A stretch of 46,537 bases of DNA. Source: a virus. Its lineage: Duplodnaviria > Caudoviricetes. This document shows positions 1 to 46,537 of the stretch, in pieces. The notes under the pieces are model-generated. The model did not search any database. It was not told the origin of the DNA and worked only from the letters and a program-made list of their open reading frames with translations. The position numbers and the translations under genes were made by a program. The stretch spans positions 1 to 46,537 of the IMG/VR virus record IMGVR_UViG_3300048865_000027; one strand, written 5' to 3'. How positions within the stretch are numbered: the stretch's first letter is position 1; each line of letters starts with the position of its first letter.

Positions 1-1293
1 TCAGGCACCTAGGACGGTACGCCCAGCCTGGGGCACCTCGCCGTGCGAATCCCGTGCGAATGCACCCTCGCGCCGGTAATTGGCCGGTATGAACTTGCCG
101 TAGATTTTGAATACCATCTCGACGTCCACGTGGCCCAGCTGGTTGGCGAGCCAATACGGGTTGCCCCCGGCCGTCAGCCGTGTGCTGGCGAAGGTGTGCC
201 GCAGCTGGTAGGGGTTACGATACCGTACGCCGGCGCGCTTGCACAGCGGCATCCACAGGCTTTTCCGGAACTGGTATTCCGACTCCCATGGCGCGCCCTT
301 GCGCGGGTCGTGCCATATCCGGCCGCCGGCCAGGAAGGTGTAGGCCTTCTGGGCCTGGAGCGCGGCCAGCGCCGCCGGCGTCAGCTCCACGTCGCGTGTG
401 CCCGCCGCGGTCTTGGGCGTTTTCAGCACCTGGGTGACCTTACCGTCGACCATCCCAGTGACCAGGTTGTCGGCGATGCGCATGCGGCTGTGTATCCAGT
501 CGGTGCCCGCCCAGGACATGGCCAGCATCTCGCCTGGCCGGGGGCCCGTCTCGAGCCAGAACTGGATCATGGGGCGCTCGTCTGCCCTTGCCGCCCGCAG
601 CAAGGCGGCGACCTCGTCTATGTCGAAGGGGTCCACCTCGTACTCGGACTTCTTGGCCGTCTGCTTGATCAGCTTCTTCAGGGCGATCCTGTCCAGGGGG
701 TTGAACTCGATCAGCTCGTCATTGACCGCGTCGTCCAGGACGGACCGAAGCGGCGTCAGGCGGTTGCGCACGGTCTTGCCCGTTACGCCCATGCTTGCGA
801 TCCACTCGCGCAGCGCCGACGGCGCCAGCTCGTCTATCCGGGTGTTGGCCCATTTGGGCAGCAGGTACAGCCGGATGGCCTTCTCGTACCCCAGCAGGGT
901 CGACGCGGATATGGTGCCGTTCTCCGCCTGCTTCTCGTAGATGGCCTTCTGCCGCTGCAGGAGCGGACCGAGCAACAGGCGCGTGCCCGGCAGCTCCCCG
1001 CCGGCGGGCTCCAGCTTTGCCGCCTTGGCCGAGTCCGGGAAGTACGCCCGGTACGAAAACGTGCCGTCCTTTATCTTGCGCCGGATCTCCGCACGCAGGC
1101 CCGCGGCATACTCGATATAGCCCTTATTGATCTTGGCCGGCGGCAGCAGCTCGCGGCATTCCTCGCCCTTGTAGCTGAAGGCGATCTGCACCCGCGGGCC
1201 CTCGGTGGTTTCCCGGTAGGTTATGCCGCGCGGAGTTTCTGGTCTGGCTGACTCGTTTCGGCCCACTTGTCCACTTCCTCGGTATTGATCCAA
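1..1293 (-). CDS. int: Tyrosine recombinase/integrase with N-terminal arm-binding domain
   Basis: Motifs TGPRPGE, KT, YQLRHTF, LGH...Y; the true start may be the downstream GTG (VGRNES). Confidence 0.95.
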   Translation of the reverse strand: MDQYRGSGQVGRNESARPETPRGITYRETTEGPRVQIAFSYKGEECRELLPPAKINKGYIEYAAGLRAEIRRKIKDGTFSYRAYFPDSAKAAKLEPAGGELPGTRLLLGPLLQRQKAIYEKQAENGTISASTLLGYEKAIRLYLLPKWANTRIDELAPSALREWIASMGVTGKTVRNRLTPLRSVLDDAVNDELIEFNPLDRIALKKLIKQTAKKSEYEVDPFDIDEVAALLRAARADERPMIQFWLETGPRPGEMLAMSWAGTDWIHSRMRIADNLVTGMVDGKVTQVLKTPKTAAGTRDVELTPAALAALQAQKAYTFLAGGRIWHDPRKGAPWESEYQFRKSLWMPLCKRAGVRYRNPYQLRHTFASTRLTAGGNPYWLANQLGHVDVEMVFKIYGKFIPANYRREGAFARDSHGEVPQAGRTVLGA

Positions 1294-1421
1294 AGGCAGC
1301 CGTCGGCGGCCTTCCGGTAATGGACACCCTCGGTCCAGATGTGTCGCCGATTTTTAGCATAGACGGCGTCCGGGGTGTCGCCCGACATTTCGCAGTACTT
1401 CTGCAGTTTCACCCATTTCAT
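1221..1421 (-). CDS. xis: Excisionase
   Basis: 66-aa basic protein (KWVKLQKYCEMSG...WTEGVHYRKAADG) overlapping the int 5' end. Confidence 0.85.
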   Translation of the reverse strand: MKWVKLQKYCEMSGDTPDAVYAKNRRHIWTEGVHYRKAADGCLWINTEEVDKWAETSQPDQKLRAA

Positions 1422-3733: not shown

Positions 3734-4002
3734 GTTGTCGGCTCCTTGCGGTCGATCAGGGTGCGGATGCGCGCGGCAGAATGGCAATTGGCCGTATGCG
3801 ATGCCATGCTCTGATCCTCGTTATCGAGTACCGCCGCTATCGCTTCCTCCAGCGCCTTGCGCCGCTCGTCGGCGCGCGCAGTGTCGATCTGACGCTGGAT
3901 GTGCCCGCGCAGGCTCTGGCGCTCGGCCGTGGTCATGATGTCGGCAGCCCATTTCGGCAACCGCGGCAACTCCGGCCGGGCGGGGGGGGGGTCATTGGGC
4001 AT
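3730..4002 (-). CDS. Hypothetical phage protein
   Basis: 90 aa, GGAGG RBS, coupled to its neighbours; G10 tract near the 5' end. Confidence 0.55.
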   Translation of the reverse strand: MPNDPPPARPELPRLPKWAADIMTTAERQSLRGHIQRQIDTARADERRKALEEAIAAVLDNEDQSMASHTANCHSAARIRTLIDRKEPTT

Positions 4003-4711
4003 TGCTGCCTCCGGTCATGGCGGCGCGTCGCACTTCGAACGCATCGGGGTCGATGCCCGCATCCCTGCACACCTTGATCGCCGAATTGCTGCCCAAGGCA
4101 AATAGCTCTCTTGCTATCACCCAATTGGGCTTGGTCGAGTAGTCGTCCGCGCAGATGCGGCGCGCGTTCGACAGGAGGTAGAACGGCGTGAAGTGGGCGT
4201 GGCCGACATTGCACGTCGGCGCATCCCCGCCTTCCTGCTGCTCGGCGGGGTGGGCACCAGACGGAGGGGGAAGGGGCTGCCAGTGGGTGGGCGTCGAACT
4301 CGCGCTTTTGTTCGGCAAATGCCAGTGATTCAGCATCATCGAGTGCCACGGGTTATCGAAGCGGAATCCCGACGGTGAGAACTGCTGGAAGTGCCCAACC
4401 CAGCTACCGCCGCTTTCGGCATTGGTCAGCAGAATGTATGTCCCATCCTTCGGCGCGCTCGCAATGTCTCGCCACCCGGAGGGCTGCTGGGGGTGGGCGC
4501 GTCGGTTCCAGGCTGCGATGGCGCTGGCGCCCGACTCGTCCCAGTTCTTCCCGTTGGCCTCGACACCGCAGTCGCCGCAATGCACGATAGGGAATCCTCT
4601 GTCGGCCGGGTCGTACTTGTCGGTGCGCTTGCACGTCGGCGGCGACATATGGATCGTCGTTCCGCCGCAGAACGGGCAGGGCAGCAGGGCTTCGGTGGGG
4701 GATTGGGTCAT
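3992..4711 (-). CDS. Lar-like zinc domain fused to a DUF551-like domain
   Basis: LLPCPFCG...AIAAWNRR followed by WRDIASAPKDGT...PTHWQPLPPP. Confidence 0.75.
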   Translation of the reverse strand: MTQSPTEALLPCPFCGGTTIHMSPPTCKRTDKYDPADRGFPIVHCGDCGVEANGKNWDESGASAIAAWNRRAHPQQPSGWRDIASAPKDGTYILLTNAESGGSWVGHFQQFSPSGFRFDNPWHSMMLNHWHLPNKSASSTPTHWQPLPPPSGAHPAEQQEGGDAPTCNVGHAHFTPFYLLSNARRICADDYSTKPNWVIARELFALGSNSAIKVCRDAGIDPDAFEVRRAAMTGGSNAQ

Positions 4712-4770
4712 GTCAGTCTTCCCATGGTCCAGGGTAATCGCGGCCGGGCTTCTGCCTGCGCTTCCTGCTG

Positions 4771-4829
4771 TTGCGGGACATGGCGGGGGAGCAGTACGAT
4801 CGGCGCCGTTCACACCTTGGGAGAGGGGA
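4771..4829 (+). promoter_or_regulatory. Putative sigma70 promoter and RBS of cassette A
   Basis: TTGCGG-18-TACGAT, then CCTTGGGAGAGGGGA-ATG; near-identical to 6033-6090. Confidence 0.55.
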
Positions 4830-5369
4830 ATGTCGTTCGATACGTTCGTCCAGATCAGCGGCGCCGCGGCAAATTGGGCCTCCGCTATCGCCACCGGAGC
4901 GGCCTCGATCATTGCGCTTTGGCTTGGAACGGCCGACGCGAGACGTCGCGCGAATGAGAGCCGACTGATGGGCGACACGGTGCGCGCTCTGCTCGAGCTC
5001 GAACTGCATGCAGTGGCGGTTGCGGCGGAGAAGTTGCCCGCAGCGCTCGCGAGTATCCGGCCCGATCCCCCGGGCAGCCAGAACGATGACGGTCACATCG
5101 CCTTTCTTCGCTTCACTGCTAGCCGCTTGGTCACTCCAGCCGCCCAGGCGAACTTTGCGCAATTGATCCATCTTGGAGAGCGTGAATCGCAGCTGGTCGC
5201 AGCCGTCGTCGGTGAAACGGTCAGACTCAAGCGGACGCTGGAAGATTGGACGGAGCACTATGCGATCATGGACCGGCGGGAGGCGGTGATTGATAGCATC
5301 GAAGAGAGAGCGGTCGATATAGCGCAGGCCATCCGGCTGCTGCCGTGGGCTGCGAAGGAAAGGGATTAG
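4830..5369 (+). CDS. Counter-oriented membrane-anchored moron protein A
   Basis: 179 aa, strong RBS, N-terminal hydrophobic helix (NWASAIATGAASIIALWLG). Confidence 0.75.
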   Translation: MSFDTFVQISGAAANWASAIATGAASIIALWLGTADARRRANESRLMGDTVRALLELELHAVAVAAEKLPAALASIRPDPPGSQNDDGHIAFLRFTASRLVTPAAQANFAQLIHLGERESQLVAAVVGETVRLKRTLEDWTEHYAIMDRREAVIDSIEERAVDIAQAIRLLPWAAKERD

Positions 5370-6031
5370 CACGCTTCGATCCTCCTGAACTCCACCACCC
5401 ACACCCAGGGATTCGCCTCCCAGGCGCCGGCGCCGTTGATCGATTCCCACAACTGGGCGAAGCCGTTGCGGTAGGGGTGATCTATCTCGATCAAGGGCAG
5501 ATCCAGTAGTTGGCTCTCGTCTTGGCCAATGGCCGGTATCTCGATGGGCGATGCGCCCTCGGCGATGCTGTCGGCCTCGCTGATATCCTGCAACCGCTCC
5601 ACGCGTACGCCGGTTATCTCCAGCGTGATGCGGCTGGCCCAGCGTGGCATGTGGATAGAGGGCTTCCATCCAGCGCCGTAGTCACCCAGGCACACGCCAT
5701 CAGGGGTTTTCACCTTGTGGCAGGGTAGATCGTCATGCTCTTCGAGCCACGCCTCATCGGCGCGATATTCGATGCCGTCGTAGCCGTCCCACGGGTCTGG
5801 GCGCGATCCGATCCCCCATGTTTCCCGCACCCACAGGCGGTCGCCGAGCTGGCCGTAGGGGCTCAACTCAGCGGCGACGCGTGGGCGTGGATCGCCGACT
5901 GGCGGTTGAAGGCAGGCGGCGAGGCCCGGCGTGCGAAGCGTGATCTTCACCAAGCGCCGCGTCTGCGTCTTCGTGTCGGTCAGCAGGGCGCGCACCATCG
6001 GCGCCGAGAAAAGGATGGGGCGCTCTTTCAT
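5366..6031 (-). CDS. ASCH/PUA-like phage protein
   Basis: MKERPILFSAPMVRA...KTQTRR...LWVRETW...WKPSIHMPRWASRITLEIT...NPWVWVVEF. Confidence 0.85.
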   Translation of the reverse strand: MKERPILFSAPMVRALLTDTKTQTRRLVKITLRTPGLAACLQPPVGDPRPRVAAELSPYGQLGDRLWVRETWGIGSRPDPWDGYDGIEYRADEAWLEEHDDLPCHKVKTPDGVCLGDYGAGWKPSIHMPRWASRITLEITGVRVERLQDISEADSIAEGASPIEIPAIGQDESQLLDLPLIEIDHPYRNGFAQLWESINGAGAWEANPWVWVVEFRRIEAC

Positions 6032-6032
6032 G

Positions 6033-6090
6033 CTGACACCTCCGCGCCGGCGCAGTACGATTGCCGCCGGTTCAACCTTGGGAGAGGGGA
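6033..6090 (+). promoter_or_regulatory. Putative sigma70 promoter and RBS of cassette B
   Basis: CTGACA-17-TACGAT, then CCTTGGGAGAGGGGA-ATG. Confidence 0.6.
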
Positions 6091-6726
6091 ATGGATCGGA
6101 AGCCCGTACTCGGCTGGCCCGAATACACCGCAGTCGCCATTGGCATCGTGGTATCTGTCGGCGTGGCCGCTATCATTTCGCCTGCGGTGCGCTGTTTTTT
6201 TTCCAGCGACGTGCCGGCGGCCTGGGTGCAAGCTGTCGGGTCGATCGCCGCGATTGTTGGATCGTTTGCCCTCGGACGGTGGCAGTCCGCTAAAGCAATG
6301 GAACAGGCGATAGCGCTGAAAGATGCGGAGAAGATTGAGCGCCTGAAAGGGTACGAGTCCATCGTCGAACTCGTGTACATGCGTAGTTGGGAGGTTGGCA
6401 AGTCTATGACTCACAACATCGCGAATCCCGATATGGCAGTGACCAACTGGCAATTGACGCTGAGGCAAGACTGTATAGGCGCTTTGGGCGCTTTCGCAAA
6501 ATTGCCCTTGCACGAGTTGCATAGCCCTGAGTGCATTACAAGCGCCGCAGGCCTTGGTAGCGCTCTTGCCACTATGGTCGCTAACATGGATGCTTGGGCA
6601 ACTAAGGAACGCACCGCGCTGTGGGAGGCCGAGTTTGGCTCTGCTAGAGAACAGGTCCGCATCCAGTCCCTTCTGGCAGAAGGTCTGTGGAATCACTTCT
6701 GTGAGAACAGCAAGAAGCAGCTTTGA
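6091..6726 (+). CDS. Counter-oriented membrane moron protein B
   Basis: 211 aa, two N-terminal hydrophobic segments (AWVQAVGSIAAIVGSFALG); visibly lower GC than the flanks. Confidence 0.8.
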   Translation: MDRKPVLGWPEYTAVAIGIVVSVGVAAIISPAVRCFFSSDVPAAWVQAVGSIAAIVGSFALGRWQSAKAMEQAIALKDAEKIERLKGYESIVELVYMRSWEVGKSMTHNIANPDMAVTNWQLTLRQDCIGALGAFAKLPLHELHSPECITSAAGLGSALATMVANMDAWATKERTALWEAEFGSAREQVRIQSLLAEGLWNHFCENSKKQL

Positions 6727-6734
6727 TCGCATGG

Positions 6735-7259
6735 CTACGCCGCCTCCGCCATTTCCGGCGCGCTGGGTGGCTCGATGGAGAACTCGATCTCGTTGCCCAT
6801 GAGCGTCGACAGCTTGCCCACCGCCTTCTCGTCCGGGTTGCACTTCACCCGAAACGACAGGGTGACGCTCCCACCGTCCATCGGCTCGATGTGGAAGCCA
6901 TCGACGGTCGCGTCGCACAGGACGATGTCGCTCTTGCCGCTGGTGCCGTAGTGCACCGTGAACGTGGCGCCGACGATCTCGTCGTCCCACTTGAACGCAT
7001 GCAGCTTGTTGCCGAAGGCCAGGCGGGTGAGCTGCGGTGGCCCGTCTTCCTGCTCGGCCTGGTCGACCATGTCCATTTCGCCGGGGTGCGGCGCGCGGTA
7101 CAGCGAGGCCTTCAGCGACGGATGGAACTCGGACAGGATGTCGTTGGATACCGTGATGGATATCTTCAGGTCCGCACCGGGCACGTTCTCTTCGCCGTGC
7201 TTCTCCGGACGCAGATTGAAGTTCAGGAACTGGCCGGTCTGGTGGTCAAGCTCGAGCAT
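6735..7259 (-). CDS. Conserved hypothetical phage protein
   Basis: 174 aa, AGGAG RBS, phage-typical codon usage. Confidence 0.8.
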   Translation of the reverse strand: MLELDHQTGQFLNFNLRPEKHGEENVPGADLKISITVSNDILSEFHPSLKASLYRAPHPGEMDMVDQAEQEDGPPQLTRLAFGNKLHAFKWDDEIVGATFTVHYGTSGKSDIVLCDATVDGFHIEPMDGGSVTLSFRVKCNPDEKAVGKLSTLMGNEIEFSIEPPSAPEMAEAA

Positions 7260-7343: not shown

Positions 7344-7973
7344 TTACGCGGCCTTGCGGCGCAGCGTTTCGACCATGGCGCGCAGCTCGGCTTCGAACTG
7401 CAGCAGGCCGGGCAGCAACTTGGTGTTGATGTAGGCGTCGTCGCGGGGGATGCGCTGGATGTACAGCCGCCACTTCTCGCCCTGGCGGGGGTCGTAGGAA
7501 ATGAAATCCCACCAATGCCGGCCGGTGACCAGCATGTTTCCCTGGACCTGCGGTATGTGGTCTTCGGGCATTCCCTCCAGCCACGTCAGGATATGGACGG
7601 CCTCGTCATGCGGGCACTTCATTTCGACGCCGCCCTCGCGTCCGACCAAGCCATCCGGCGACGCGCCGATGAAAGGGTGACTCGGATGGGTAATGAAGGG
7701 TGACGGCACGATGATGCCGCCGGTCGTGACCATGTAGGCCTCGTTCGCCGCTTCTTCCAGGTCCTTGCCCCAGTCCAGCGATTTGCCGCCCACCTCGTGC
7801 TGCGCGATGCCGGCCAAGCGTTCGAAGGCCTTGACCCGCATCAGCTTCGCGCGCGCTTCCGTCGGTTTGCCGTCGCGCTTTACAGCGACGATGTCCTTGA
7901 ACGTCGAGGCGGTCAGTTTTCCGGCGCGCTCAAGGCGCCACGCGTCGGTGCGTTGTTCGGCCGGCGCGTTCAT
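7344..7973 (-). CDS. YqaJ/lambda-exonuclease family protein
   Basis: WRLERAGKLTAS...GASPDG...EMKCP...QVQGNM. Confidence 0.92.
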   Translation of the reverse strand: MNAPAEQRTDAWRLERAGKLTASTFKDIVAVKRDGKPTEARAKLMRVKAFERLAGIAQHEVGGKSLDWGKDLEEAANEAYMVTTGGIIVPSPFITHPSHPFIGASPDGLVGREGGVEMKCPHDEAVHILTWLEGMPEDHIPQVQGNMLVTGRHWWDFISYDPRQGEKWRLYIQRIPRDDAYINTKLLPGLLQFEAELRAMVETLRRKAA

Positions 7974-8914
7974 TCGTCAGCTCCGGCGAACGGGTTGTCG
8001 TCCTGCTCCTGGGAGGCAGGGCCGGCATGTGCCGCGCCCTGCGCCGGTGTACCGGCCTCGCGATGCGGCTCCGGGCAAGTATTCGTTTCGGCATCCTCGG
8101 CGGCAGCCAAGGCCTGAAGCCGCCGTAGCTCATCAGCGCCGACGGCGGTGCGTCCGGCATAGCCGATTTCCTTCCATGCTTTGGCCAGGTCGGCTACACG
8201 CTTGTCAGCAGGGGCTTTGCTCCGCGCGATTTCATCCAGCCTCTTCACCAGCGCGGTACGGTCGATGTCTTCCGGCGGCTGCGGCTTGGCCTGCTGGGCG
8301 AACTCGGCCGCGGTGCGCGGCGTGATGTCGCGCTCGCGCGGCGGGCTGTCCTGCAGTTCGTCGACGGAATAGACGCCCAGCAGCGCGCCAGGCGTATAGG
8401 CCCGGGCCCAGTTCTTCACCTGCAGATAGCCGAGCTGCTGCTTGGGGTTGGTCTTCCAGAGAGGCGAGTTCTTCGTGGTGACGTCGGCCGCGCAAAGCCA
8501 CTCATTCCAGGTGATCTCCTTCTCGCCCTTGATGACCGCGCCGACGCGGCATTCCACGCGCGCGCCTTCGCCCCTGTACTCGTAGTGGAAGCGGCCCTCG
8601 ATGGCGCCGCTGGACTGGACGACGGCATTCACCAGCTGGGCCTCATAGCCCAGCGCGCCGTTCACGATGTGCGTCTTCTGCGCCACCACGAAGGGGTTCA
8701 TGTTCCACTGCATCGATTGCATGATCACGGCCATGCAGTCGGAGGCGTTGCCCTGCAGGTGCTTGGGCACGGTGGCCCGGCCGGCGGCCATCATTTCCGC
8801 AGCGCGCATCATGCTGTCCATGTTGCGGGTGTCCAGCACCAAACCGCTGGTGCTGGTGTCCGCCGGAGGCAGGTCCAGGGCGGTGGATTGGTCAATGGTG
8901 GTGACTTCAGACAT
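7970..8914 (-). CDS. recT: RecT-family single-strand annealing recombinase
   Basis: VPKHLQG..SDCMAV..QSMQWNMNPF.VAQKT...GYEAQLVNAV; adjacent to the exonuclease. Confidence 0.88.
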   Translation of the reverse strand: MSEVTTIDQSTALDLPPADTSTSGLVLDTRNMDSMMRAAEMMAAGRATVPKHLQGNASDCMAVIMQSMQWNMNPFVVAQKTHIVNGALGYEAQLVNAVVQSSGAIEGRFHYEYRGEGARVECRVGAVIKGEKEITWNEWLCAADVTTKNSPLWKTNPKQQLGYLQVKNWARAYTPGALLGVYSVDELQDSPPRERDITPRTAAEFAQQAKPQPPEDIDRTALVKRLDEIARSKAPADKRVADLAKAWKEIGYAGRTAVGADELRRLQALAAAEDAETNTCPEPHREAGTPAQGAAHAGPASQEQDDNPFAGADE

Positions 8915-11912: not shown

Positions 11913-11952
11913 CTCTGTTCTCCAATCGCTGGGTGGTGATGCGATGGAGCGA

Positions 11953-11995
11953 AGATTACCCGCAGGTAATGTTCTGGGCAATACCTTTGGGTAAT
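11953..11995 (-). promoter_or_regulatory. PL promoter with operators OL1/OL2
   Basis: Minus-strand TTGCCC-17-TAATCT; palindromes ATTACCCGCAGGTAAT (11955-11970) and AATACCTTTGGGTAAT (11980-11995). Confidence 0.8.
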
Positions 11996-13012: not shown

Positions 13013-13083
13013 ATTGTTCTGCGGTCTTATCTCCAGGTAAATGTCCTCTGGGTATTGATATTTCGATTACCTACAGGTAATCT
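13013..13083. promoter_or_regulatory. OR region: PR, putative PRM and three operators
   Basis: PR TTGATA-17-TAATCT (13055-13083); operators 13066-13081 ATTACCTACAGGTAAT, 13041-13056 and 13026-13041; minus-strand TTTACC-17-AACAAT. Confidence 0.8.
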
Positions 13084-13090
13084 TCGCCCT

Positions 13091-13339
13091 ATGCGAATCG
13101 AACCTCTGCTCCAGTGGCTCAAGGAAACGCCTGCTGAGGTGGCCGAACAGCGCTGCGCCGACTACGGCACATCCGTCGGATACCTGCGGCAGATCGCGTA
13201 TGGCAACAAGCGAGCTGCGCTGAACGGCGCCGACATCGAGAAGATCACCGATGGGCGCTGCACGCGTCAGCACTTGCGACCCGATGACTACTGGCGCATC
13301 TGGCCAGAGCTCGCCCAGAAGGAGCCCACCAATGCGTGA
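13091..13339 (+). CDS. cro: Cro/YdaS-like regulator
   Basis: GTSVGYLRQIAYG...IEKITDGRCTRQHLRPDDYWRIWPEL. Confidence 0.85.
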   Translation: MRIEPLLQWLKETPAEVAEQRCADYGTSVGYLRQIAYGNKRAALNGADIEKITDGRCTRQHLRPDDYWRIWPELAQKEPTNA

Positions 13340-14639: not shown

Positions 14640-15448
14640 GCACCAGGATCATGTCGGCCTGCTGGCCGCTCCGTATGCCGCCATCCCCCAAGGCGGTCCT
14701 GATTTCGCTGGCTGACAACGCTAACGATCATGGCGAGTGCTGGCCGTCCATCCCCACGATATGCGAGCGCACGTGCCTATCCGAACGGACGGTTCACGCC
14801 GCCATCAAGTGGCTGGAGCAGGCCAAGATCGTGACCGCCGACCGGTCCAATGGGCGGCACACCAGGTACGTGTTGACCCCCGAAAAGTTTGCGGAACCCC
14901 CGCAGCAGTTGCACCCCCGCAGCAGTTGCACCCCCGCAAATACCGCAGTCACCCCCGCAGCAGCTGCGGTGGTACCCCCGCAAATACCGCAGTCACCCCC
15001 GCAGCAGCTGCGGTCTAACCATCAAGAACCGTCAAAGGAACCATCAGGAACCGTCAATAAACGCGCGCGCAAGCCGAAACCGGAAAAGGAGGTCCCGTTC
15101 GATGCATCGGCGATCCAGTTGCCGGACTGGCTACCGCGCTCGTCCTGGTCCGACTGGGTTGAACACCGAATCGCCGTCAAGGCGCCGATGACCAAGCGCG
15201 CGGCGGAGATGGCCGTCCGGCACCTGGAGCGCCTGCGGACCGCTGGCAACGATCCGGTGGCCGTGATCGAGCAAAGCGTGCGAAGCGGAAAGTGGACCGA
15301 CCTGTACCCGCTGCGCGACCAGCAGCAGCGCGGGCAGGGTGGTGGCGCGCGGCAACAGCGCGCCGAAGACAACCTGCAGCAGTTCCTGCGGCTGACCGGC
15401 GGCAATCCGCCAGACGACGGCCGCACGATCGACATGGAGGCCGCCTGA
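14636..15448 (+). CDS. Replication initiator (N-terminal winged HTH)
   Basis: KAVLISLADNANDHGECWPSIPTICERTCLSERTV; internal iterons; TTG start overlapping the ref stop. Confidence 0.85.
   Translation: MSTRIMSACWPLRMPPSPKAVLISLADNANDHGECWPSIPTICERTCLSERTVHAAIKWLEQAKIVTADRSNGRHTRYVLTPEKFAEPPQQLHPRSSCTPANTAVTPAAAAVVPPQIPQSPPQQLRSNHQEPSKEPSGTVNKRARKPKPEKEVPFDASAIQLPDWLPRSSWSDWVEHRIAVKAPMTKRAAEMAVRHLERLRTAGNDPVAVIEQSVRSGKWTDLYPLRDQQQRGQGGGARQQRAEDNLQQFLRLTGGNPPDDGRTIDMEAA
14896..15014 (+). repeat. Iterons of the putative replication origin
   Basis: Six ACCCCCGCA cores at 14896, 14913, 14930, 14951, 14974 and 14995. Confidence 0.8.
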
Positions 15449-17251: not shown

Positions 17252-17709
17252 GCAACCAGCCGATGCCGGATCGCGATGAGGCGATCGTCGCGCGCATCTT
17301 CGCCGGCGGAAGCACCGCTAAGGTCGCGGCCGAACTGGGCATTTCTCCGGGCCGCGTGTCGCAGATCCTGGCCAGAAAGGGATTGTGCGGCCGGGTGAAG
17401 GAACCCGGCATGCCTTGCATCAGTTGGAGCGTGCGCCAGGAGCCGGGCGGGGCCTGGCTATGCACCGGCGGCGGCATTGCGCGCCGCGCCAAGACGCCGG
17501 AGGTCGCGGTGGAGCGCTGGAAGGCCGAGTTGGCCAGACAGCGCGGCACCATCGTCGTGCTGGAAACACCTACGCCGGCGCCCGTGCGCATCGTGACAGG
17601 CGCGCTGCGCCTCTCCGCGACGATGCGTCATCTGGCCGAGCGCGCGGCCGCCGCACAGCCTCCGCTGCTGAACATGGGCAGCCCGGTGCGGGAAGGCGGT
17701 GTCCAGTGA
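17248..17709 (+). CDS. HTH protein
   Basis: STAKVAAELGISPGRVSQIL. Confidence 0.65.
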   Translation: MSNQPMPDRDEAIVARIFAGGSTAKVAAELGISPGRVSQILARKGLCGRVKEPGMPCISWSVRQEPGGAWLCTGGGIARRAKTPEVAVERWKAELARQRGTIVVLETPTPAPVRIVTGALRLSATMRHLAERAAAAQPPLLNMGSPVREGGVQ

Positions 17710-18299
17710 CCTGGGAGGAACGCTGGGAGCGAGGGGACCCGGCCAAGGTGCTGGAGCGGAAGCAGGGCATGCAGGCGCGCCGGCCGTCCAAGGACGCCGC
17801 GCTTGCCAGGATTGAGCGTCTTTTTGCGGGGGAAGATATGACGCGCGAGATGGATTTCCGGACCAAGATCGGCCCGGAGCTGCACGAGCGGCTGGAGAAC
17901 TGGGGCTGGGTGATGCGGGACAAGATCACCCCCGGGACCAGCCCCACCGCCAAGATATGCCACCAACTGGCCGTCATGGCGGGGAAGTACAAGCCGGAGC
18001 ACAAATCCGAGCCGCCCACCCGCGCGCAGACGGCCGACGCCATGGAGGTGGAGCGCGCCTGGCGCAACGAGCTGATGCCCATGAAGGCCAAGATGATGCT
18101 CGCCGGCTACTACACCTACCGGCTGCACCCGCACCGGGTATGCCGCGCGGCCGCGATCCGCTTCGCCGACTTCGATTCCGAAATGGGCAAAGCATGTGGC
18201 TTTCTCGCGACGATCCTGGCAAGGCTTGCCGCAAGGGCAGTTAGGGCTCAGAATCCGGATCACAACTTGACAGCCGACACGCCTAGCGTGGCCGAGTAG
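17706..18299 (+). CDS. Q-like late antiterminator (start may be the ATG at 17838)
   Basis: RLENWG...DAMEVERAW...YY; last early gene, followed by a terminator. Confidence 0.6.
   Translation: MTWEERWERGDPAKVLERKQGMQARRPSKDAALARIERLFAGEDMTREMDFRTKIGPELHERLENWGWVMRDKITPGTSPTAKICHQLAVMAGKYKPEHKSEPPTRAQTADAMEVERAWRNELMPMKAKMMLAGYYTYRLHPHRVCRAAAIRFADFDSEMGKACGFLATILARLAARAVRAQNPDHNLTADTPSVAE
18226..18254 (+). promoter_or_regulatory. Possible late promoter (PR'-like)
   Basis: TTGCCG-17-CAGAAT in the Q-like 3' end, about 90 nt before a terminator. Confidence 0.3.
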
Positions 18300-40422: not shown

Positions 40423-42327
40423 TCATTCGAATGGGATGCTTCGAGCTAGGATAGCTGAAGCGGGGGTTGTCAGATGGCCGTAGTCCCACGTTGAAAGTGC
40501 GAGCGGGTCATCGCGCACTTTGACCAAGCAGCCACTTATTGAGTCGCAGAGTGAGTGATATGCCGATATAAACCTTGCTTGGGACCCGGTAAGAAGGGAC
40601 ATCATTTGTTGGTCTACCGCAATCGGCCGCAAATCAAGGCCGAACTTCATTTGCTTCGGGATCGCAAAATTCCGAAAGTTCTCCATGCCGAGTTCGTAAA
40701 CCAACTTGGGTAGCTTGTCACGCCATTCTGGCGCTGGCCCCATCACGAAAATGCGCTGCACACCTGCCTCATGTATCGCTGTGATCGTAGATAACAGTCG
40801 TCTTCCGAGCTCGGAGTCATGGTGCCAGGAACTGCCGTATACGATCCAACGTGCGAAGAGGACGACGGCTTTTGGCGGGTGTGCCTTGATCACGGAGAGC
40901 ACGTATTCATTGTTTTCAGGGCAGCCAGGAAAGACACCATTGACGCCCAGTATGGGCGGACAGCCATCACGCGCAAGCTCTGCAATAGGCGTTCTTTGCG
41001 GGAGCACCTCAAGCAGTCCCGGATATAGACGTCCGGCGTATGAGTCGCCCCATACCGCGACTACATTGTTGGAGTCCGCGAGCAGAGGGGCGGTGCATTC
41101 TTCTGCAAAACCGTCGGGCGGACGGGTGAATCCTATCCAGCAAGTTCCCACGCGGGCATCATCCTGAAAGTCGACGGTATATGTCGCGATGGACCGCAGA
41201 TTTTGGGGCACCCGCTCTGGCATCCCGTGGGCAACTGCAACTCCTACCGCTGCAGTTCCAGCGAAGGCCACAGCTACGATCGAGCCAATGGGCCTCCACG
41301 AATGAACTGCGGCCCGTCGGATGGGGCGTTCGATATAAGCGTAGGTGGCCCACGCTAGGACGATGCTCGCGGCGATTATCGCGACCTTCGCCGCTGCTGG
41401 GTCTGATGCGTGCGTGATCGCGCCCATAGAGAGCAGGGGCCAATGCCAAAGGTAGAGCGGGTAGCTGAGAAGGCCAACGCACACGGCCAGCCGGTTTGAC
41501 AGCAGCGTTCGGTTGAGCCACGCATCCTTCCCGGCGTAGATGACCAGCGCGGCGCCGGCAGTGGGCAGCAACGCGAGCCACCCTGGGAAGTTTCGTGCAT
41601 GCCCGGATACCGCAATGGCAAGCACAAGCAGGCTCACTCCGGCCACCGACGCTGCTGTAGCGATGGACCGGCGTGCGGGTGTGCGCATTATGGCCAAGAT
41701 CGCTCCGATCATCAGTTCCCATGCGCGGGTGTGGGGAAGGTAAAAGGCGCTTGATGGGTCCTTCGCTGTTATCCAAATGTTCGCGGTGAAGGAGGCGCAC
41801 GCGAGCAGCACTACTCCGATGAGGACGGCCCTCGATTTCCCCCAGCGCCAAAGAAGCGTGACTAGCAGGGGGAACGCCAAGTAATACTGTTCTTCGATCG
41901 CCAGGGACCAGAGGTGCAGAAGCGGCTTGTAGGTTGCCTCCGTATCGAAATACCCCGATTCCCGCCATAGCATGAAATTTTGAATAAAGGCCGCACTTGC
42001 CGCAGCGTGTTCGCCTAATGCCTTGTAGTCATGAGGGCTCAATAGGAACCATCCGGCAACGAGCACGGACATGAGCACCAGCGCCAACGCGGGGAAAATT
42101 CGACGACAACGAGCGAGATAGAAGCCGCTGAAACTCCACGTGCCCGAGTTCAGCCTGTCGATGATTATTCCGGTTATCAAAAATCCAGAAATAACGAAGA
42201 ACACGTCCACGCCGACGTAGCCGCCTGGGAGCACGCCTGGGAACGCATGAAAAAGAACGACGGCTATGACAGCGACAGCACGTAGTCCGTCGATGTCTGG
42301 TCGGTAACTCTCGGGGCTGGTCCGCAT
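40423..42327 (-). CDS. Acyltransferase-3 plus SGNH domain O-acetyltransferase (OafA/OatA-like)
   Basis: YRPDIDGLRAVAV, GYVGVDVFFVISGFLIT, HLWSLAIEEQYY, SYPLYLWHWP, GDS, DYGH; lower GC; alternative start 42369. Confidence 0.92.
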   Translation of the reverse strand: MRTSPESYRPDIDGLRAVAVIAVVLFHAFPGVLPGGYVGVDVFFVISGFLITGIIIDRLNSGTWSFSGFYLARCRRIFPALALVLMSVLVAGWFLLSPHDYKALGEHAAASAAFIQNFMLWRESGYFDTEATYKPLLHLWSLAIEEQYYLAFPLLVTLLWRWGKSRAVLIGVVLLACASFTANIWITAKDPSSAFYLPHTRAWELMIGAILAIMRTPARRSIATAASVAGVSLLVLAIAVSGHARNFPGWLALLPTAGAALVIYAGKDAWLNRTLLSNRLAVCVGLLSYPLYLWHWPLLSMGAITHASDPAAAKVAIIAASIVLAWATYAYIERPIRRAAVHSWRPIGSIVAVAFAGTAAVGVAVAHGMPERVPQNLRSIATYTVDFQDDARVGTCWIGFTRPPDGFAEECTAPLLADSNNVVAVWGDSYAGRLYPGLLEVLPQRTPIAELARDGCPPILGVNGVFPGCPENNEYVLSVIKAHPPKAVVLFARWIVYGSSWHHDSELGRRLLSTITAIHEAGVQRIFVMGPAPEWRDKLPKLVYELGMENFRNFAIPKQMKFGLDLRPIAVDQQMMSLLTGSQARFISAYHSLCDSISGCLVKVRDDPLALSTWDYGHLTTPASAILARSIPFE

Positions 42328-42395
42328 CTGAATATGGATTGGTCTAGGCGGTGGTGATTTTATCGGCATTACTTGCAAACAGCAGAAATTGAACG

Positions 42396-42419
42396 AACCC
42401 GCCCAGCCGGGTTTTTTTT
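42396..42419 (+). terminator. Intrinsic terminator-like hairpin upstream of the lysis genes
   Basis: AACCCG-N6-CGGGTT followed by a T run. Confidence 0.55.
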
Positions 42420-42441
42420 CGTCCATAAACAGGAGCCAGCC

Positions 42442-42732
42442 TTGGCCGACGAATACCTGTCCGAAGCCTTCATCAAATCGCTGCACGCCCAAGTCGTGTC
42501 GATGAAGGACGACATCGCCAGTACGGCAGCGGGCACGCGCGAGAACACCGAGGCGATCAAGCGAATCGCCGAGGACACGCGCGGCATTGTGGAGATGTTC
42601 AGCGCGCTGGAGGGCGGATTCAAGGTACTGAGCGGAATCGGGCGCTTGGCGAAGCCGATCTTCTACATCGCGAGCGCCACAGGCGCGATCCTGGGCGTGT
42701 GGGCCGCCATCAAAGCGGGGTTCATGAAATGA
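42442..42732 (+). CDS. Putative holin
   Basis: TTG start with AGGAG RBS; coiled coil plus C-terminal hydrophobic helix; overlaps the endolysin start. Confidence 0.6.
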   Translation: MADEYLSEAFIKSLHAQVVSMKDDIASTAAGTRENTEAIKRIAEDTRGIVEMFSALEGGFKVLSGIGRLAKPIFYIASATGAILGVWAAIKAGFMK

Positions 42733-43243: not shown

Positions 43244-43753
43244 ATGGTCAAGTATGCGATCGCCGCGGCCGCAGGCCTGGCTTTGGCGCTGGCCGCCGTG
43301 CTCGGCATCAGATGGTACGGCAGCCACCAGTACGATGCCGGCCACGCCCAGGCCCAGCTCGAAGCCCAGGCGGCCGCCGCCAAGCTGTCCGAGCAGTACC
43401 GCGCCCAGGAACAGGCCGCACAGGAACAAGCCGATGAAAACTATGCGAAGTACCGCGGCCAGGTCTTGGCCACTCAAGCCCGCATTGCTGGCTCTTACGC
43501 TGACGATGTTGGGCGGTTGCGCAAGCAAATCGCTGGACTGCAATCCGCCGGCGCCGCCGCGCATCCCGCAGACGGCGCCGGAGCTGATGGAGGCCCCGGC
43601 CCTGACGTCATCGGCGCTTTTGCGGCGTGCGCAGGACGATATGACGAAGTGGTCCAGTATGCTGCAGGGCTCGCCGACCAGGTGACAGGGCTGCAGGGTT
43701 ACGTCCGGGGCGCCCTCAACGCCCAGGCGCCCCCACCTTCTTCTCACCAGTGA
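43244..43753 (+). CDS. i-spanin (Rz-like)
   Basis: N-terminal transmembrane helix plus coiled coil, after the endolysin. Confidence 0.8.
   Translation: MVKYAIAAAAGLALALAAVLGIRWYGSHQYDAGHAQAQLEAQAAAAKLSEQYRAQEQAAQEQADENYAKYRGQVLATQARIAGSYADDVGRLRKQIAGLQSAGAAAHPADGAGADGGPGPDVIGAFAACAGRYDEVVQYAAGLADQVTGLQGYVRGALNAQAPPPSSHQ
43434..43685 (+). CDS. o-spanin lipoprotein (Rz1-like), embedded in Rz
   Basis: ALLALTLTMLGGC lipobox followed by a Pro-rich segment, +1 frame inside Rz. Confidence 0.75.
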   Translation: MKTMRSTAARSWPLKPALLALTLTMLGGCASKSLDCNPPAPPRIPQTAPELMEAPALTSSALLRRAQDDMTKWSSMLQGSPTR

Positions 43754-44714
43754 CCTTCCGCGCCGGCTTGTCCTCCCGCACGCCTTGGAATGATGCCTGC
43801 CGCAGGATCCCGCCGTCTGTAATCGTCGTGTATGCCACCTCCACGACAAGCTCAGGCCTGACCCAGTGCATGGTCGGCTTGGAATTGCCGCCCCAGCGGT
43901 CCGACAGCACGGGCTTTTCGATGAACGGCATTTCCTCGGTAGCCAGGGGCGTCAGGCGCTTCATCAGCATGTCGAGCGTACTCCCGCTGAACCCAGTGCC
44001 TACGCGGCCTGAATAGCGCAGCCTGTCGCCTTCTCGCAAGCCGACCAGCAGGGCGCCGAAGGCGTTGCGTGATCCGCCTGGATTGGTCCATCCGCCCACG
44101 ACGAATTCCTGCCTGGGCCGGCATTTAAGCTTGATCCAGGTGTCGGTGCGTCCCGCGCGGTATGGCGCGTCCAGACGCTTGCCGATCAGGCCTTCCAGCT
44201 TCCGCTCGCAGGCCTGCGCGAGCAGCGACACGGCATGATCCCTGGATTCCACCTCGGCGACCGTGCTGCGCATGATGGCGGCGTTCTCGGGCACCCCCGC
44301 CAGGACCGCCTGGAGTGCCTTTGCTCGCTCCACGAAGGGAAAGTCCCGCAGGTCCTTCCCGTTCCAGTACGGGATATCGAATGCCACGTACTGCACCTGC
44401 TTGGCGACGCTCTTGTCCATGGCGTTCTGCAGGCGCTGGAAGCTGCTCACGCCGTGCTCGTCCATCACCACGATCTCACCGTCGAGCCAGCCGGTGCCGG
44501 TTGCCAGCTTCAGCGCCTCAATGCGCTGCACCAGGTCGACAAGCTTCGGCGTCCAGTCCTTCGCCTCGCGGCTGAAGAACCGTACGCCGGACTCATCGAT
44601 GCGACATAGCATGCGGTAGCCGTCGAACTTCAGTTCGTAGGCGTAGCCGCTCGGCGGCGGCCCGTCCACGAGCACGGCCAGCGGCGGCTTGATGAAGTCC
44701 GGCGGCTCTGGCAT
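43716..44714 (-). CDS. ligD: ATP-dependent DNA ligase (LigD ligase domain only)
   Basis: YELKFDGYR, LDGEIV, LEGLIGKR...Y..GR...WIKLK, QEFVVGGWT, GRVGTGF. Confidence 0.9.
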   Translation of the reverse strand: MPEPPDFIKPPLAVLVDGPPPSGYAYELKFDGYRMLCRIDESGVRFFSREAKDWTPKLVDLVQRIEALKLATGTGWLDGEIVVMDEHGVSSFQRLQNAMDKSVAKQVQYVAFDIPYWNGKDLRDFPFVERAKALQAVLAGVPENAAIMRSTVAEVESRDHAVSLLAQACERKLEGLIGKRLDAPYRAGRTDTWIKLKCRPRQEFVVGGWTNPGGSRNAFGALLVGLREGDRLRYSGRVGTGFSGSTLDMLMKRLTPLATEEMPFIEKPVLSDRWGGNSKPTMHWVRPELVVEVAYTTITDGGILRQASFQGVREDKPARKVTGEKKVGAPGR

Positions 44715-44717
44715 GGC

Positions 44718-44897
44718 CTACTTCTTCAGGATCGCGCGGACCTTGTCCACGGAATTGCTGCCGGCGTCCTTCACGGCCTGGCGCAGCTCTTCCGGCGTGC
44801 ACCCGAACTCGTTGCTCCAGTAGCGGACCTCCCAGTCTGCATCCAGGGCGATACGGGCACGGTCGCGCGGGCCGCGGTCTTTCAGGTCATCAGCCAT
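44718..44897 (-). CDS. DUF3606-family protein
   Basis: MADDLKDRGPRDRARI...WEVRYW..EFG.T.EEL..AV. Confidence 0.85.
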   Translation of the reverse strand: MADDLKDRGPRDRARIALDADWEVRYWSNEFGCTPEELRQAVKDAGSNSVDKVRAILKK

Positions 44898-45008
44898 TGT
44901 GTGCTCCTTGGGGTGAGAGTCACCGTAGAGCAAGGGGCATGCCGCCCCGCGATCGGGCTCGGCTATTGCTAATTGTCGGCCGCAACGGGAGCAGGAGCGG
45001 GCGGGACG

Positions 45009-45254
45009 ATGGATCTCATCACCGAAGTTCTTACAGGCTACAGATTCGTTTTATGCGTGAATGTGGTATCGACCTCAGGGCAGTACGGATGGACCATTGA
45101 GGTCCGACCTGACAGCCAGCGTCCATACGTGGCCAGAGCATCTGACCAGCTATTCCCCTCTGCCGCGGCCGCAGCGCGGGCCGGCGTGTTCGAGCTGAAG
45201 GAAGTGATCGCCGCGCATATCGCCGCGCCGCCTATTTCGAAATCTGATCAGTAG
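45009..45254 (+). CDS. Hypothetical protein
   Basis: 81 aa, purine-rich upstream sequence, fills an intergenic gap. Confidence 0.5.
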   Translation: MDLITEVLTGYRFVLCVNVVSTSGQYGWTIEVRPDSQRPYVARASDQLFPSAAAAARAGVFELKEVIAAHIAAPPISKSDQ

Positions 45255-45279
45255 GGACGCGCACGCTTGCGTCGTTCCG

Positions 45280-45585
45280 CTACGCCCAGGTGATCCACCA
45301 TCCCTGGTAGAACCGCCGTCCGTCGATTTCTTCGTACCCCCGCACCATCATGCCTCGGTCGGAGACAAACGTAAGAAGCTGGGGTTCTAGCAGGTCTGGG
45401 ATGCGGGGCGGGCGCGACGCCCCGAACTGCTCGAAGGACGCCACGGTAAAGATTGGTACTGCCCGCTTCAAGCCTTCGTGGTGGACGGTCTGCATGCGCA
45501 CCGTTCCTTTTATGGGTATGTCGTAGTCCTTGGCCTGCAAGGGCTCGCCCATCCGGTGCGTTCGAACAATGTTGCACGTGAGCAT
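45280..45585 (-). CDS. Putative SOS-inducible hypothetical protein
   Basis: 101 aa; LexA box about 20 nt upstream. Confidence 0.7.
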   Translation of the reverse strand: MLTCNIVRTHRMGEPLQAKDYDIPIKGTVRMQTVHHEGLKRAVPIFTVASFEQFGASRPPRIPDLLEPQLLTFVSDRGMMVRGYEEIDGRRFYQGWWITWA

Positions 45586-45604
45586 GGTAGAGCATGTTGA
45601 TATG

Positions 45605-45620
45605 CTGTATGGATAAACAG
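45605..45620. promoter_or_regulatory. LexA (SOS) box
   Basis: CTGTATGGATAAACAG matches CTGT-N8-ACAG with an AT-rich core. Confidence 0.85.
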
Positions 45621-45629
45621 TATATCGCT

Positions 45630-45848
45630 CTATCGAAGTCCGAATGCCGCGCGGATCTCATCGCCGGCCGACCGCTCCTCATGCGTATAGCCATCGCCGA
45701 GTGAGGCGCAGTGCCCAACGATGGTACGGGTGTATTCCAGCAGTTCGGGCGTCATCTCCGCATCGGCGGGGAGGACCCCGCAACTTATCGCGAGTGTCCG
45801 TAAGTCTTCCGGACCTAGCGGGTGGGACGCGAATCCGTCTGGGATCAT
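45630..45848 (-). CDS. Hypothetical protein
   Basis: 72 aa, GAGG RBS, starts just after the SRAP stop. Confidence 0.6.
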   Translation of the reverse strand: MIPDGFASHPLGPEDLRTLAISCGVLPADAEMTPELLEYTRTIVGHCASLGDGYTHEERSAGDEIRAAFGLR

Positions 45849-45850
45849 GT

Positions 45851-46537
45851 CTATTCCTCGGGGGTGGCTACGGCGGTCTTGATGACCGGCTCGGCCACCA
45901 ACTGGTCCGCGGGGTAGGGATTCAAAAAGTCCCATGTTTCCTCCGCGCCTGCAATTAACCAATCCTCGTAGGAACCTTCCGGAAGGATCACGACCATGCG
46001 CTTTTCGTCGCCGGGCCGGTGGTAGTCCTTAAAGAGCGGGTGCTGGTCGGCGTTGATGGTCAGCATCGTGTAGCTCTCGATCCATTCGCCAGTGGGGGAG
46101 CGCCACTTGTCCCATAGGCCGGCGATGCCCAGCGGCGCGCCGTCGGCCCGCCGGAACTGGGTGGCGACGGCTTTTCCGCTGCGCCAGTCCGGCTCGAATA
46201 CCGCGTCCGCCGGGATGATGCAGTGCTGGGCGCGGCGCCAGGCGTTGCCGAAGGTGAACGACTTGGCGGCGCTCTCAGAGCGGGCATTGAACGTGGACAG
46301 CTTCTGCGCCTTTTCCGCACCCTCGGCCTTGGTCATGGCCGATATCAGCCCCCAGCGCCCAACGACCGCCTCCCGCTCCGGTACCGCCTCGTCTCCCGAC
46401 TCCCACTCAGCCGGCCGGCGCACGAACACACCGGGGTACCGCGGCCACATGTCAGACTTCGGGATGGGAATGCCGCGGGCGCGGAAGTAGCGCTCCATCT
46501 GCTCGGCTTTCTTCAGGGCGGTGTAGTGGGAGCACAT
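45851..46537 (-). CDS. SOS response-associated peptidase (SRAP/HMCES family)
   Basis: N-terminal MC, RWGL, TFNARSE, C.IPA...FEP, AGLW, KRM.VIL. Confidence 0.92.
   Translation of the reverse strand: MCSHYTALKKAEQMERYFRARGIPIPKSDMWPRYPGVFVRRPAEWESGDEAVPEREAVVGRWGLISAMTKAEGAEKAQKLSTFNARSESAAKSFTFGNAWRRAQHCIIPADAVFEPDWRSGKAVATQFRRADGAPLGIAGLWDKWRSPTGEWIESYTMLTINADQHPLFKDYHRPGDEKRMVVILPEGSYEDWLIAGAEETWDFLNPYPADQLVAEPVIKTAVATPEE

Follow-up and report, generated by a model that had tools for sequence, protein, structure and literature searches.

In a temperate phage whose early-left operon is interrupted by inverted accessory genes, each inverted gene is overlain on the operon strand by one long reading frame, and comparison of homologous cassettes strongly supports the openness of that frame as a selected feature, not a shadow of GC content. 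The explanation that we consider best, with a probability of about 0.6, is that a stop-free operon-strand frame across inverted inserts would let ribosomes cover the transcript and prevent Rho from cutting off the genes downstream.

Two inverted cassettes in the early-left operon

The window analysed here is the whole stretch of 46,537 nucleotides, a complete 46.5-kb virus record of a temperate phage. Its left end holds int and xis, its minus strand RecT/YqaJ, lar-like and phrog_874 genes, and its plus strand replication genes, a Q-like gene and virion-type genes (Table 1; gene calls were made by our own composition-based caller and are approximate). From this layout, the minus-strand genes appear to form an early-left operon of ~11.9 kb running down to position 1, and it is broken by two plus-strand genes, cargos 1 and 2. 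A 27-nt inverted-repeat pair with palindromic cores (window 11944–11970 and 13066–13092) flanks the repressor region and probably represents the operators of the left and right early promoters. Short iteron-like repeats lie inside the O-like replication gene (window 14895–15000), and an ATP-dependent DNA ligase and several small genes (window 43716–46537, minus strand) occupy the right end past the lysis genes.

Table 1 Features of the early-left operon and its two cassettes in the window
Feature	Position	Strand	Remarks
Excisionase and integrase	1..1421	-	Distal operon end, downstream of both cassettes
lar-like operon gene	3992..4711	-	Downstream of cassette 1; own SD not clear
Bridge ORF 1, 219 aa	4713..5372	-	In register with cargo 1, covers cargo 1 wholly
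Type-1 promoter-like module	4771..4829	+	TTGCGG, 18 nt, TACGAT (4795-4800), purine-rich RBS; predicted from motif conservation
Cargo 1, 179-aa accessory protein	4830..5369	+	Hydrophobic N-terminal stretch; 0 TTA/CTA/TCA codons
Operon gene, phrog_874	5366..6031	-	Between cassettes 1 and 2
Bridge ORF 2, 234 aa	6028..6732	-	In register with cargo 2, covers cargo 2 wholly
Type-2 promoter-like module	6033..6090	+	CTGACA, 17 nt, TACGAT (6056-6061), RBS; predicted
Cargo 2, 211-aa accessory protein	6091..6726	+	Loose group with common hydrophobic N-terminal motif; 0 TTA/CTA/TCA codons
174-aa operon gene	6735..7259	-	Upstream of cassette 2
YqaJ exonuclease and RecT annealing genes	7344..8914	-	Upstream, same operon

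The original prediction drew attention to the antisense ORFs over both cargos, and the layout that it described was borne out when read from the sequence. Bridge ORF 1 starts at a GTG that precedes the end of the upstream TAA (5366) by 7 nt, with AGGAGG 8 nt upstream, and its TGA finishes 1 nt before the ATG of the lar-like gene at 4711. Bridge ORF 2 starts at an ATG 2 nt past the upstream TAG, with GGAGG 10 nt upstream, and its end overlaps, in ATGA, the gene that begins at 6031. The two ORFs cover their sense genes completely and carry a common peptide motif. Beyond its GTG, the ORF 1 frame continues upstream without a stop as far as 5681, so this GTG is a chosen start and not the sole one. 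Neither bridge ORF matched Pfam, PHROG or PADLOC, and both are shadow-like in composition (−0.03 and −0.02 per residue for ORFs 1 and 2), against +0.12 per residue for cargo 1.

Among the cargos, Atlas neighbours of cargo 1 are hypothetical or putative transmembrane proteins, and no cargo neighbour is named. In the homologue search cargo 1 matched itself only and cargo 2 gave two distant matches; neither window cargo matched Pfam, and PADLOC returned no match for 18 proteins, 16 of them cargos. Three cargo relatives match a PHROG, of unknown function only. Soil metatranscriptome contigs (X1–X3, which carry no strand or level information) cover parts of the region; one RNA contig has A>G at window position 6538, a substitution in cargo 2 that leaves the bridge open.

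Taken alone, the window is modest and only suggestive evidence, and the homologues make the pattern decisive. Relative to phage genes matched for GC3 and length, the probability that some antisense frame is open is 0.20 and 0.13 for the two cargos (joint 0.027), and synonymous resampling gives P values of 0.084 and 0.050 (joint 0.004).

Homologous cassettes are bridged far above chance

Cassettes in related prophages were chosen by promoter motif or early-operon position, and the antisense frame was not a criterion. One operon-strand ORF of 134–830 codons bridges 14 of the 16 inverted inserts in this first set, the longest being open across three cargos and their spacers; a bridge is absent over the inserts at L279 and L274x. 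Of the bridged inserts, 12 of 14 have an SD-like start positioned −11 to +2 nt relative to the upstream stop. The L275 bridge starts at −17/−20 with no SD, and that of L361 is reached via a 33-codon ORF whose stop overlaps its SD-led start. Bridge ends fall between −4 and +8 nt of the downstream start, except where the frame is fused to the downstream gene (L276). At L097, L091, L274, L278, L360 and L361, a single frame runs over an array of two or three different cargos, every one of which has a start of its own. At L278 (8695–9066), an in-frame stop divides a cargo homologous to the L086 membrane protein, and the bridge frame there stays open.

Counting one cargo per family, an antisense frame is open in 15 of 16 motif-led families, where 1,248 control genes of matched GC3 and length would predict 4.3 (P ~1e-10; because the loci are related and have cargo families in common, this and the other survey P values overstate independence). 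Across all inverted families the count is 18 of 20, and with the window's two families removed it is 13 of 14 versus 4.0 expected (P 5e-9). A later, separate scan with the type-2 promoter pattern, run once the model was fixed, gave eight new inserts, five of them bridged with coupled starts (L373, L374, L375, L377 and L379) versus 0.81 expected (P 2e-5). The other three (L372, L378 and L383, the last without clear operon context) are unbridged and, with L279 and L274x, show that bridging is not obligatory. The original prediction had named frequent antisense stops in homologous cassettes as evidence against itself; unbridged inserts do exist, but as a minority in both sets (2/16 in the first and 3/8 in the second).

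In more distant phages, 80 loci with phrog_874 showed no enrichment (10 of 21 genes open versus 7.5 expected), and a coupled ORF spans 5 of 17 inverted blocks, tightly at both ends in 4. Inverted genes with operon-strand ORFs tightly coupled at both ends are seen in the distant phages at L313, L314, L330 and L358.

Several candidates were left out of these counts. Most matches of the loose motif scans were due to chance. The gut-metagenome loci L153/L179/L181 and their copies have no demonstrated phage operon context, and one has an in-register stop; L125/L187/L200/L202 carry a conserved chromosomal dehydrogenase-like gene. A 248-aa gene at L279, with three in-register stops, was a relaxed-motif match upstream of the early operon. 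We also omitted doubtful small ORFs (69 aa in L091, 65 aa in L360 and 57 aa in L279), the second piece of the split L278 cargo and same-insert duplicates (L087, L012/L111, L060/L201, L199/L261, L256, L258, L369, L381 and L380).

The open frame follows the module, in or out of register

In the first set, 18 of 21 cargos have a spacer of 2 mod 3 between the −10 element and their start, a length that places the cargo in register with the frame running through the module. With a spacer of 0 mod 3, the open frame is out of register and the cargo uses TTA, CTA and TCA codons. The 247-aa cargo L361b, for example, has eight in-register stops and none in the bridge frame, and in-register stops also occur in the out-of-register bridged cargos L362 (207 aa; three stops), L373 (203 aa; two) and L375 (116 aa; four). 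Out-of-register bridges run for 116–247 codons. The L278x bridge is likewise out of register; at L378, where the spacer is also 0 mod 3, every frame is closed.

In the 15 in-register families, none of 231 CTN/TCN codons is CTA or TCA, against 38.8 expected from the other A-ending codons (17% A-ending in the other boxes), and TTA occurs 0 times versus 63 for TTG, both counts being conditional on register. The depletion of these codons that the original prediction proposed to look for in homologous cassettes is therefore strongly present. Its caveat was that both ORFs are in-register shadow frames, which stay open easily in GC-rich DNA; the in-register status holds in the window, but the out-of-register bridges do not allow it to serve as the explanation. 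A neutral shadow ORF would be open at the rate set by GC3 and in the in-register frame only, and the bridges show neither property.

Promoter-like modules and inherited ends

A 50-nt repeat, D8, precedes both cargos (two matches versus 0.02 expected by chance) and reads as a promoter-like −35/−10 TACGAT with an RBS; a conserved −35/−10-like motif stands ahead of at least 20 cargos. The type-1 −35 is located within what was once a 23-aa operon-strand micro-ORF, and the type-2 −35 is the SD-to-ATG spacer of the next operon gene, read backwards. We rejected the shared peptide motif as a protein motif, as it coincides with D8 and is promoter/RBS DNA read backwards: bridges 1 and 2 resemble each other solely over the shared module, and the peptide varies around an invariant TACGAT. 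In an annotated phage collection, matches to the promoter module were not above chance, and the best 20 matches to the region were mostly short pieces within phrog_874. A simple scan found no terminator-like sites in the inserts or behind either cargo. At L275 (9349) and L256 (4028), the module occurs without a cargo and is aimed straight into the upstream operon gene, which could mark an empty slot or a source of antisense RNA.

The modules are also present in Bordetella sputigena, Achromobacter sp. HZ34 and further genomes of that genus, and a Bordetella-like host is for this reason likely. Relatives carry other cargos (L086, L097) or no cargo (L088) at the junction of the 174-aa gene. The neighbouring YqaJ and RecT genes are, at a guess from their adjacency and from the differing cargos at the same junctions, candidate machinery for cassette swapping via the short shared modules.

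The coupled ends largely predate the cassettes. In cassette-free L088 an identical junction follows the 174-aa gene and runs into an ordinary gene, and in 29 of 61 phrog_874 homologues the next gene starts within −14 to +5 nt. The type-1 tail exists as a free-standing, Arg/Lys-rich 23-aa micro-ORF with its own SD in L365, L368 and the unbridged L279 allele; in cassette alleles the same micro-ORF (window about 4713–4781, minus strand) forms the tail of the bridge and carries the TTGCGG −35 on its opposite strand. It has no PHROG match. Many synonymous changes are seen in cassette-free alleles of this micro-ORF (L368:3971–4042, plus strand; L365; L364). The unbridged L372 and L378 retain the type-2 stop/start overlap at the 3′ end. 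Precise coupling, which the original prediction took to be the real signal, is thus present but largely inherited from native junctions, and is weaker evidence than was first thought. The real signal is that a single frame between inherited ends is kept stop-free; coupling marks the putative points of ribosome entry and exit, and selection is visible in the span between them.

What the bridge may do

Rho terminates untranslated, C-rich nascent RNA. Under the reading that we favour, compact promoter–RBS–cargo units, single or in tandem, would occupy native operon gene junctions, as they are seen to do, where the junction provides the SD and start beside the upstream stop, and the module provides a stop where the next gene begins. 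The joining frame, which statistically lacks stops far more often than chance predicts, whether or not it is in register with the cargo, and whose peptide drifts, would then be what selection acts on. Cargos would be transcribed in the lysogen, and the bridge would be translated after induction by ribosomes entering at the inherited start. Without a bridge, 0.4–2.5 kb of untranslated RNA with C over G would encourage Rho to terminate transcription ahead of lar, xis and int; for this reason inserts with an open frame would be favoured and new stops purged.

Gene order and the lack of terminator-like sites in the inserts suggest that the transcript is continuous across them. The operon strand has C over G across 24 of 25 cargos, a generic trait of antisense strands, and rho is present in all four related host genomes. 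On this sequence evidence the Rho step is likely, and the ribosome bridge that the original prediction put forward finds support in the TTA/CTA/TCA depletion of homologous cassettes and in the out-of-register bridges. An antiterminator, if present, would remove the need for a bridge. No N-like gene was recognised among the early ORFs scanned, which included short ORFs in part, and an Rfam search gave no matches. An O-antigen acetylase gene (window 40423–42486, minus strand), inverted in the late region, has 19 in-register antisense stops; the Q-like gene of the late operon (17706–18299) may make a bridge over it needless, although this is a single case read in the in-register frame.

The data are compatible with Rho polarity, mRNA protection or re-initiation alike. 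Ribosome passage could keep the frame open for a gain other than escape from Rho: ribosomes might re-initiate on the gene that follows, or the mRNA might be shielded from decay. We regard this as rather unlikely. The closeness of bridge ends to downstream starts (−4 to +8 nt) would suit it, as would the window's lar-like gene and one other downstream gene without a clear SD, and the micro-ORF of type-1 cassette alleles, which is fused in frame and has no SD of its own. However, 12 of 14 downstream genes carry their own SD, which points to cover of the transcript and not delivery of ribosomes, and the 3′ overlap is an inherited part of the module that persists in unbridged alleles.

True dual coding, the other possibility raised in the original prediction, is disfavoured, since sense synonymous sites change freely and the changes in the antisense peptide are not conservative beyond what random placement gives. 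Between cargo 1 and its L274 homologue there are 16, 7 and 65 differences at first, second and third codon positions; the sense proteins are 92% identical (dS 0.88, dN 0.05, dN/dS 0.05), and the antisense proteins are only 61% identical with a dN/dS of 1.5. Across six pair comparisons, this one included, antisense dN/dS is 0.9–2.2, and amino-acid conservation of the antisense protein is not found. When synonymous changes were compared with random placement in three homologue pairs, antisense conservativeness was not raised (P 0.39 and 0.56 in the two larger pairs; 0.075, a weak lean towards conservative changes, in the other). The bridges also score as non-coding by composition, their register varies, and a single ORF can span two or three different cargos plus promoters. 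We therefore consider a self-immunity role improbable, in which the antisense protein would counter the cargo much as anti-TerI2 counters TerI in prophages of Listeria, even though the SD-led starts would time such a product correctly and the layout reported for Listeria, as far as the available account goes, matches (bioRxiv 10.1101/2025.02.27.640495).

That the bridges are shadow-frame artefacts, open by chance in register with GC-rich genes and with coupled ends left over from insertion sites, is very improbable and largely refuted: inherited ends, the 0–2 TTA/CTA/TCA codons in many window genes, the window-only joint P of 0.004–0.027 and the distant phages without enrichment would agree with it, but the GC3-matched nulls (P 1e-10 and 2e-5), the 116–247-codon out-of-register bridges, the 830 codons open over three cargos and spacers, and the prevailing 2 mod 3 spacer (18/21 first-set cargos) do not.

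Relation to known systems

Phage morons are self-contained promoter–gene units with their own promoter and terminator, located between phage genes and slightly lower in GC. The cassettes resemble them as self-contained units of a predicted promoter and a gene between phage genes, and in their slightly lower GC, and differ in that a simple scan found no terminator-like site and in their common compact modules, tandem arrays and maintained antisense frame.

Closer in layout are noncontiguous operons, in which an operon is interrupted by an opposite-strand gene; four are described in Staphylococcus aureus phage 80alpha in the consulted part of the source, which also reports, citing Rostol 2024, that such an arrangement shuts down a phage immunity gene upon replication (PMC11034616). 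In that account transcription has to continue through an intervening stretch that is untranslated, and this read-through is explained by uncoupled transcription in Gram-positives. The cassettes have the same arrangement of opposite-strand genes between two same-strand gene sets, and the inverted gene has its own expression in both systems, predicted here from a promoter-like motif. Here, by contrast, co-transcription is a reading of the layout, the related hosts possess Rho, and across the stretch runs an open frame that is led by a start and is under selection.

In Listeria TERi, as far as described in the available part of the preprint, terI is a minus-strand gene within the early lytic module, and the product of the overlapping frame, anti-TerI2, is conserved and neutralises TerI by binding to it (bioRxiv 10.1101/2025.02.27.640495). 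Both systems have an accessory gene with its own promoter (here predicted), inverted in an early operon and overlapped by an operon-strand ORF; the bridges here, by contrast, lack peptide conservation and span unrelated tandem cargos. In Pseudomonas phage Fc02, olg1/olg2 and gene 10 are reported, in the passages available, to give exclusion activity from both strands (PMC9936078). Those ORFs are, like the cargos here by inference, expressed in lysogeny and antisense to an early lytic operon ORF; the Fc02 case differs in being dual-coding and, as described there, in being one conserved locus of a B3-like phage with no swappable cassette array. Long antisense overlapping genes of P. aeruginosa, according to the part of the preprint seen, are under protein-level purifying selection (bioRxiv 10.1101/2021.02.09.430400); they are likewise long antisense ORFs over real genes, whereas here openness alone is conserved. 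In the literature covered, mostly openly accessible papers without supplements, we found no account of an antisense stop-free bridge selected for openness alone.

The bridged cassettes are a variant of the noncontiguous-operon layout and a real, selected feature. The part of the noncontiguous-operon paper available to us (PMC11034616) leaves open how transcription gets past an antisense stretch without translation when Rho and translation are coupled, and bridged cassettes offer an answer to this problem. We lean towards a broader view, slightly less confidently than towards the Rho reading itself, in which the bridges form a class of ORF selected solely for translatability: on a cassette platform of the Bordetella group, units would be swapped and stacked backwards at fixed junctions, each passing a frame filter (length, register, no stop) and together keeping one ribosome track of up to 830 codons, and this would be how noncontiguous operons work where transcription and translation are coupled. 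If true, the opposite strand would constrain the codon choice of phage accessory genes, and long ‘junk’ antisense ORFs would be selectable without a functional protein. The TTA/CTA/TCA depletion, combined with the promoter motif, would then serve as a finder for lysogeny-expressed accessory genes, many of them without a known family.
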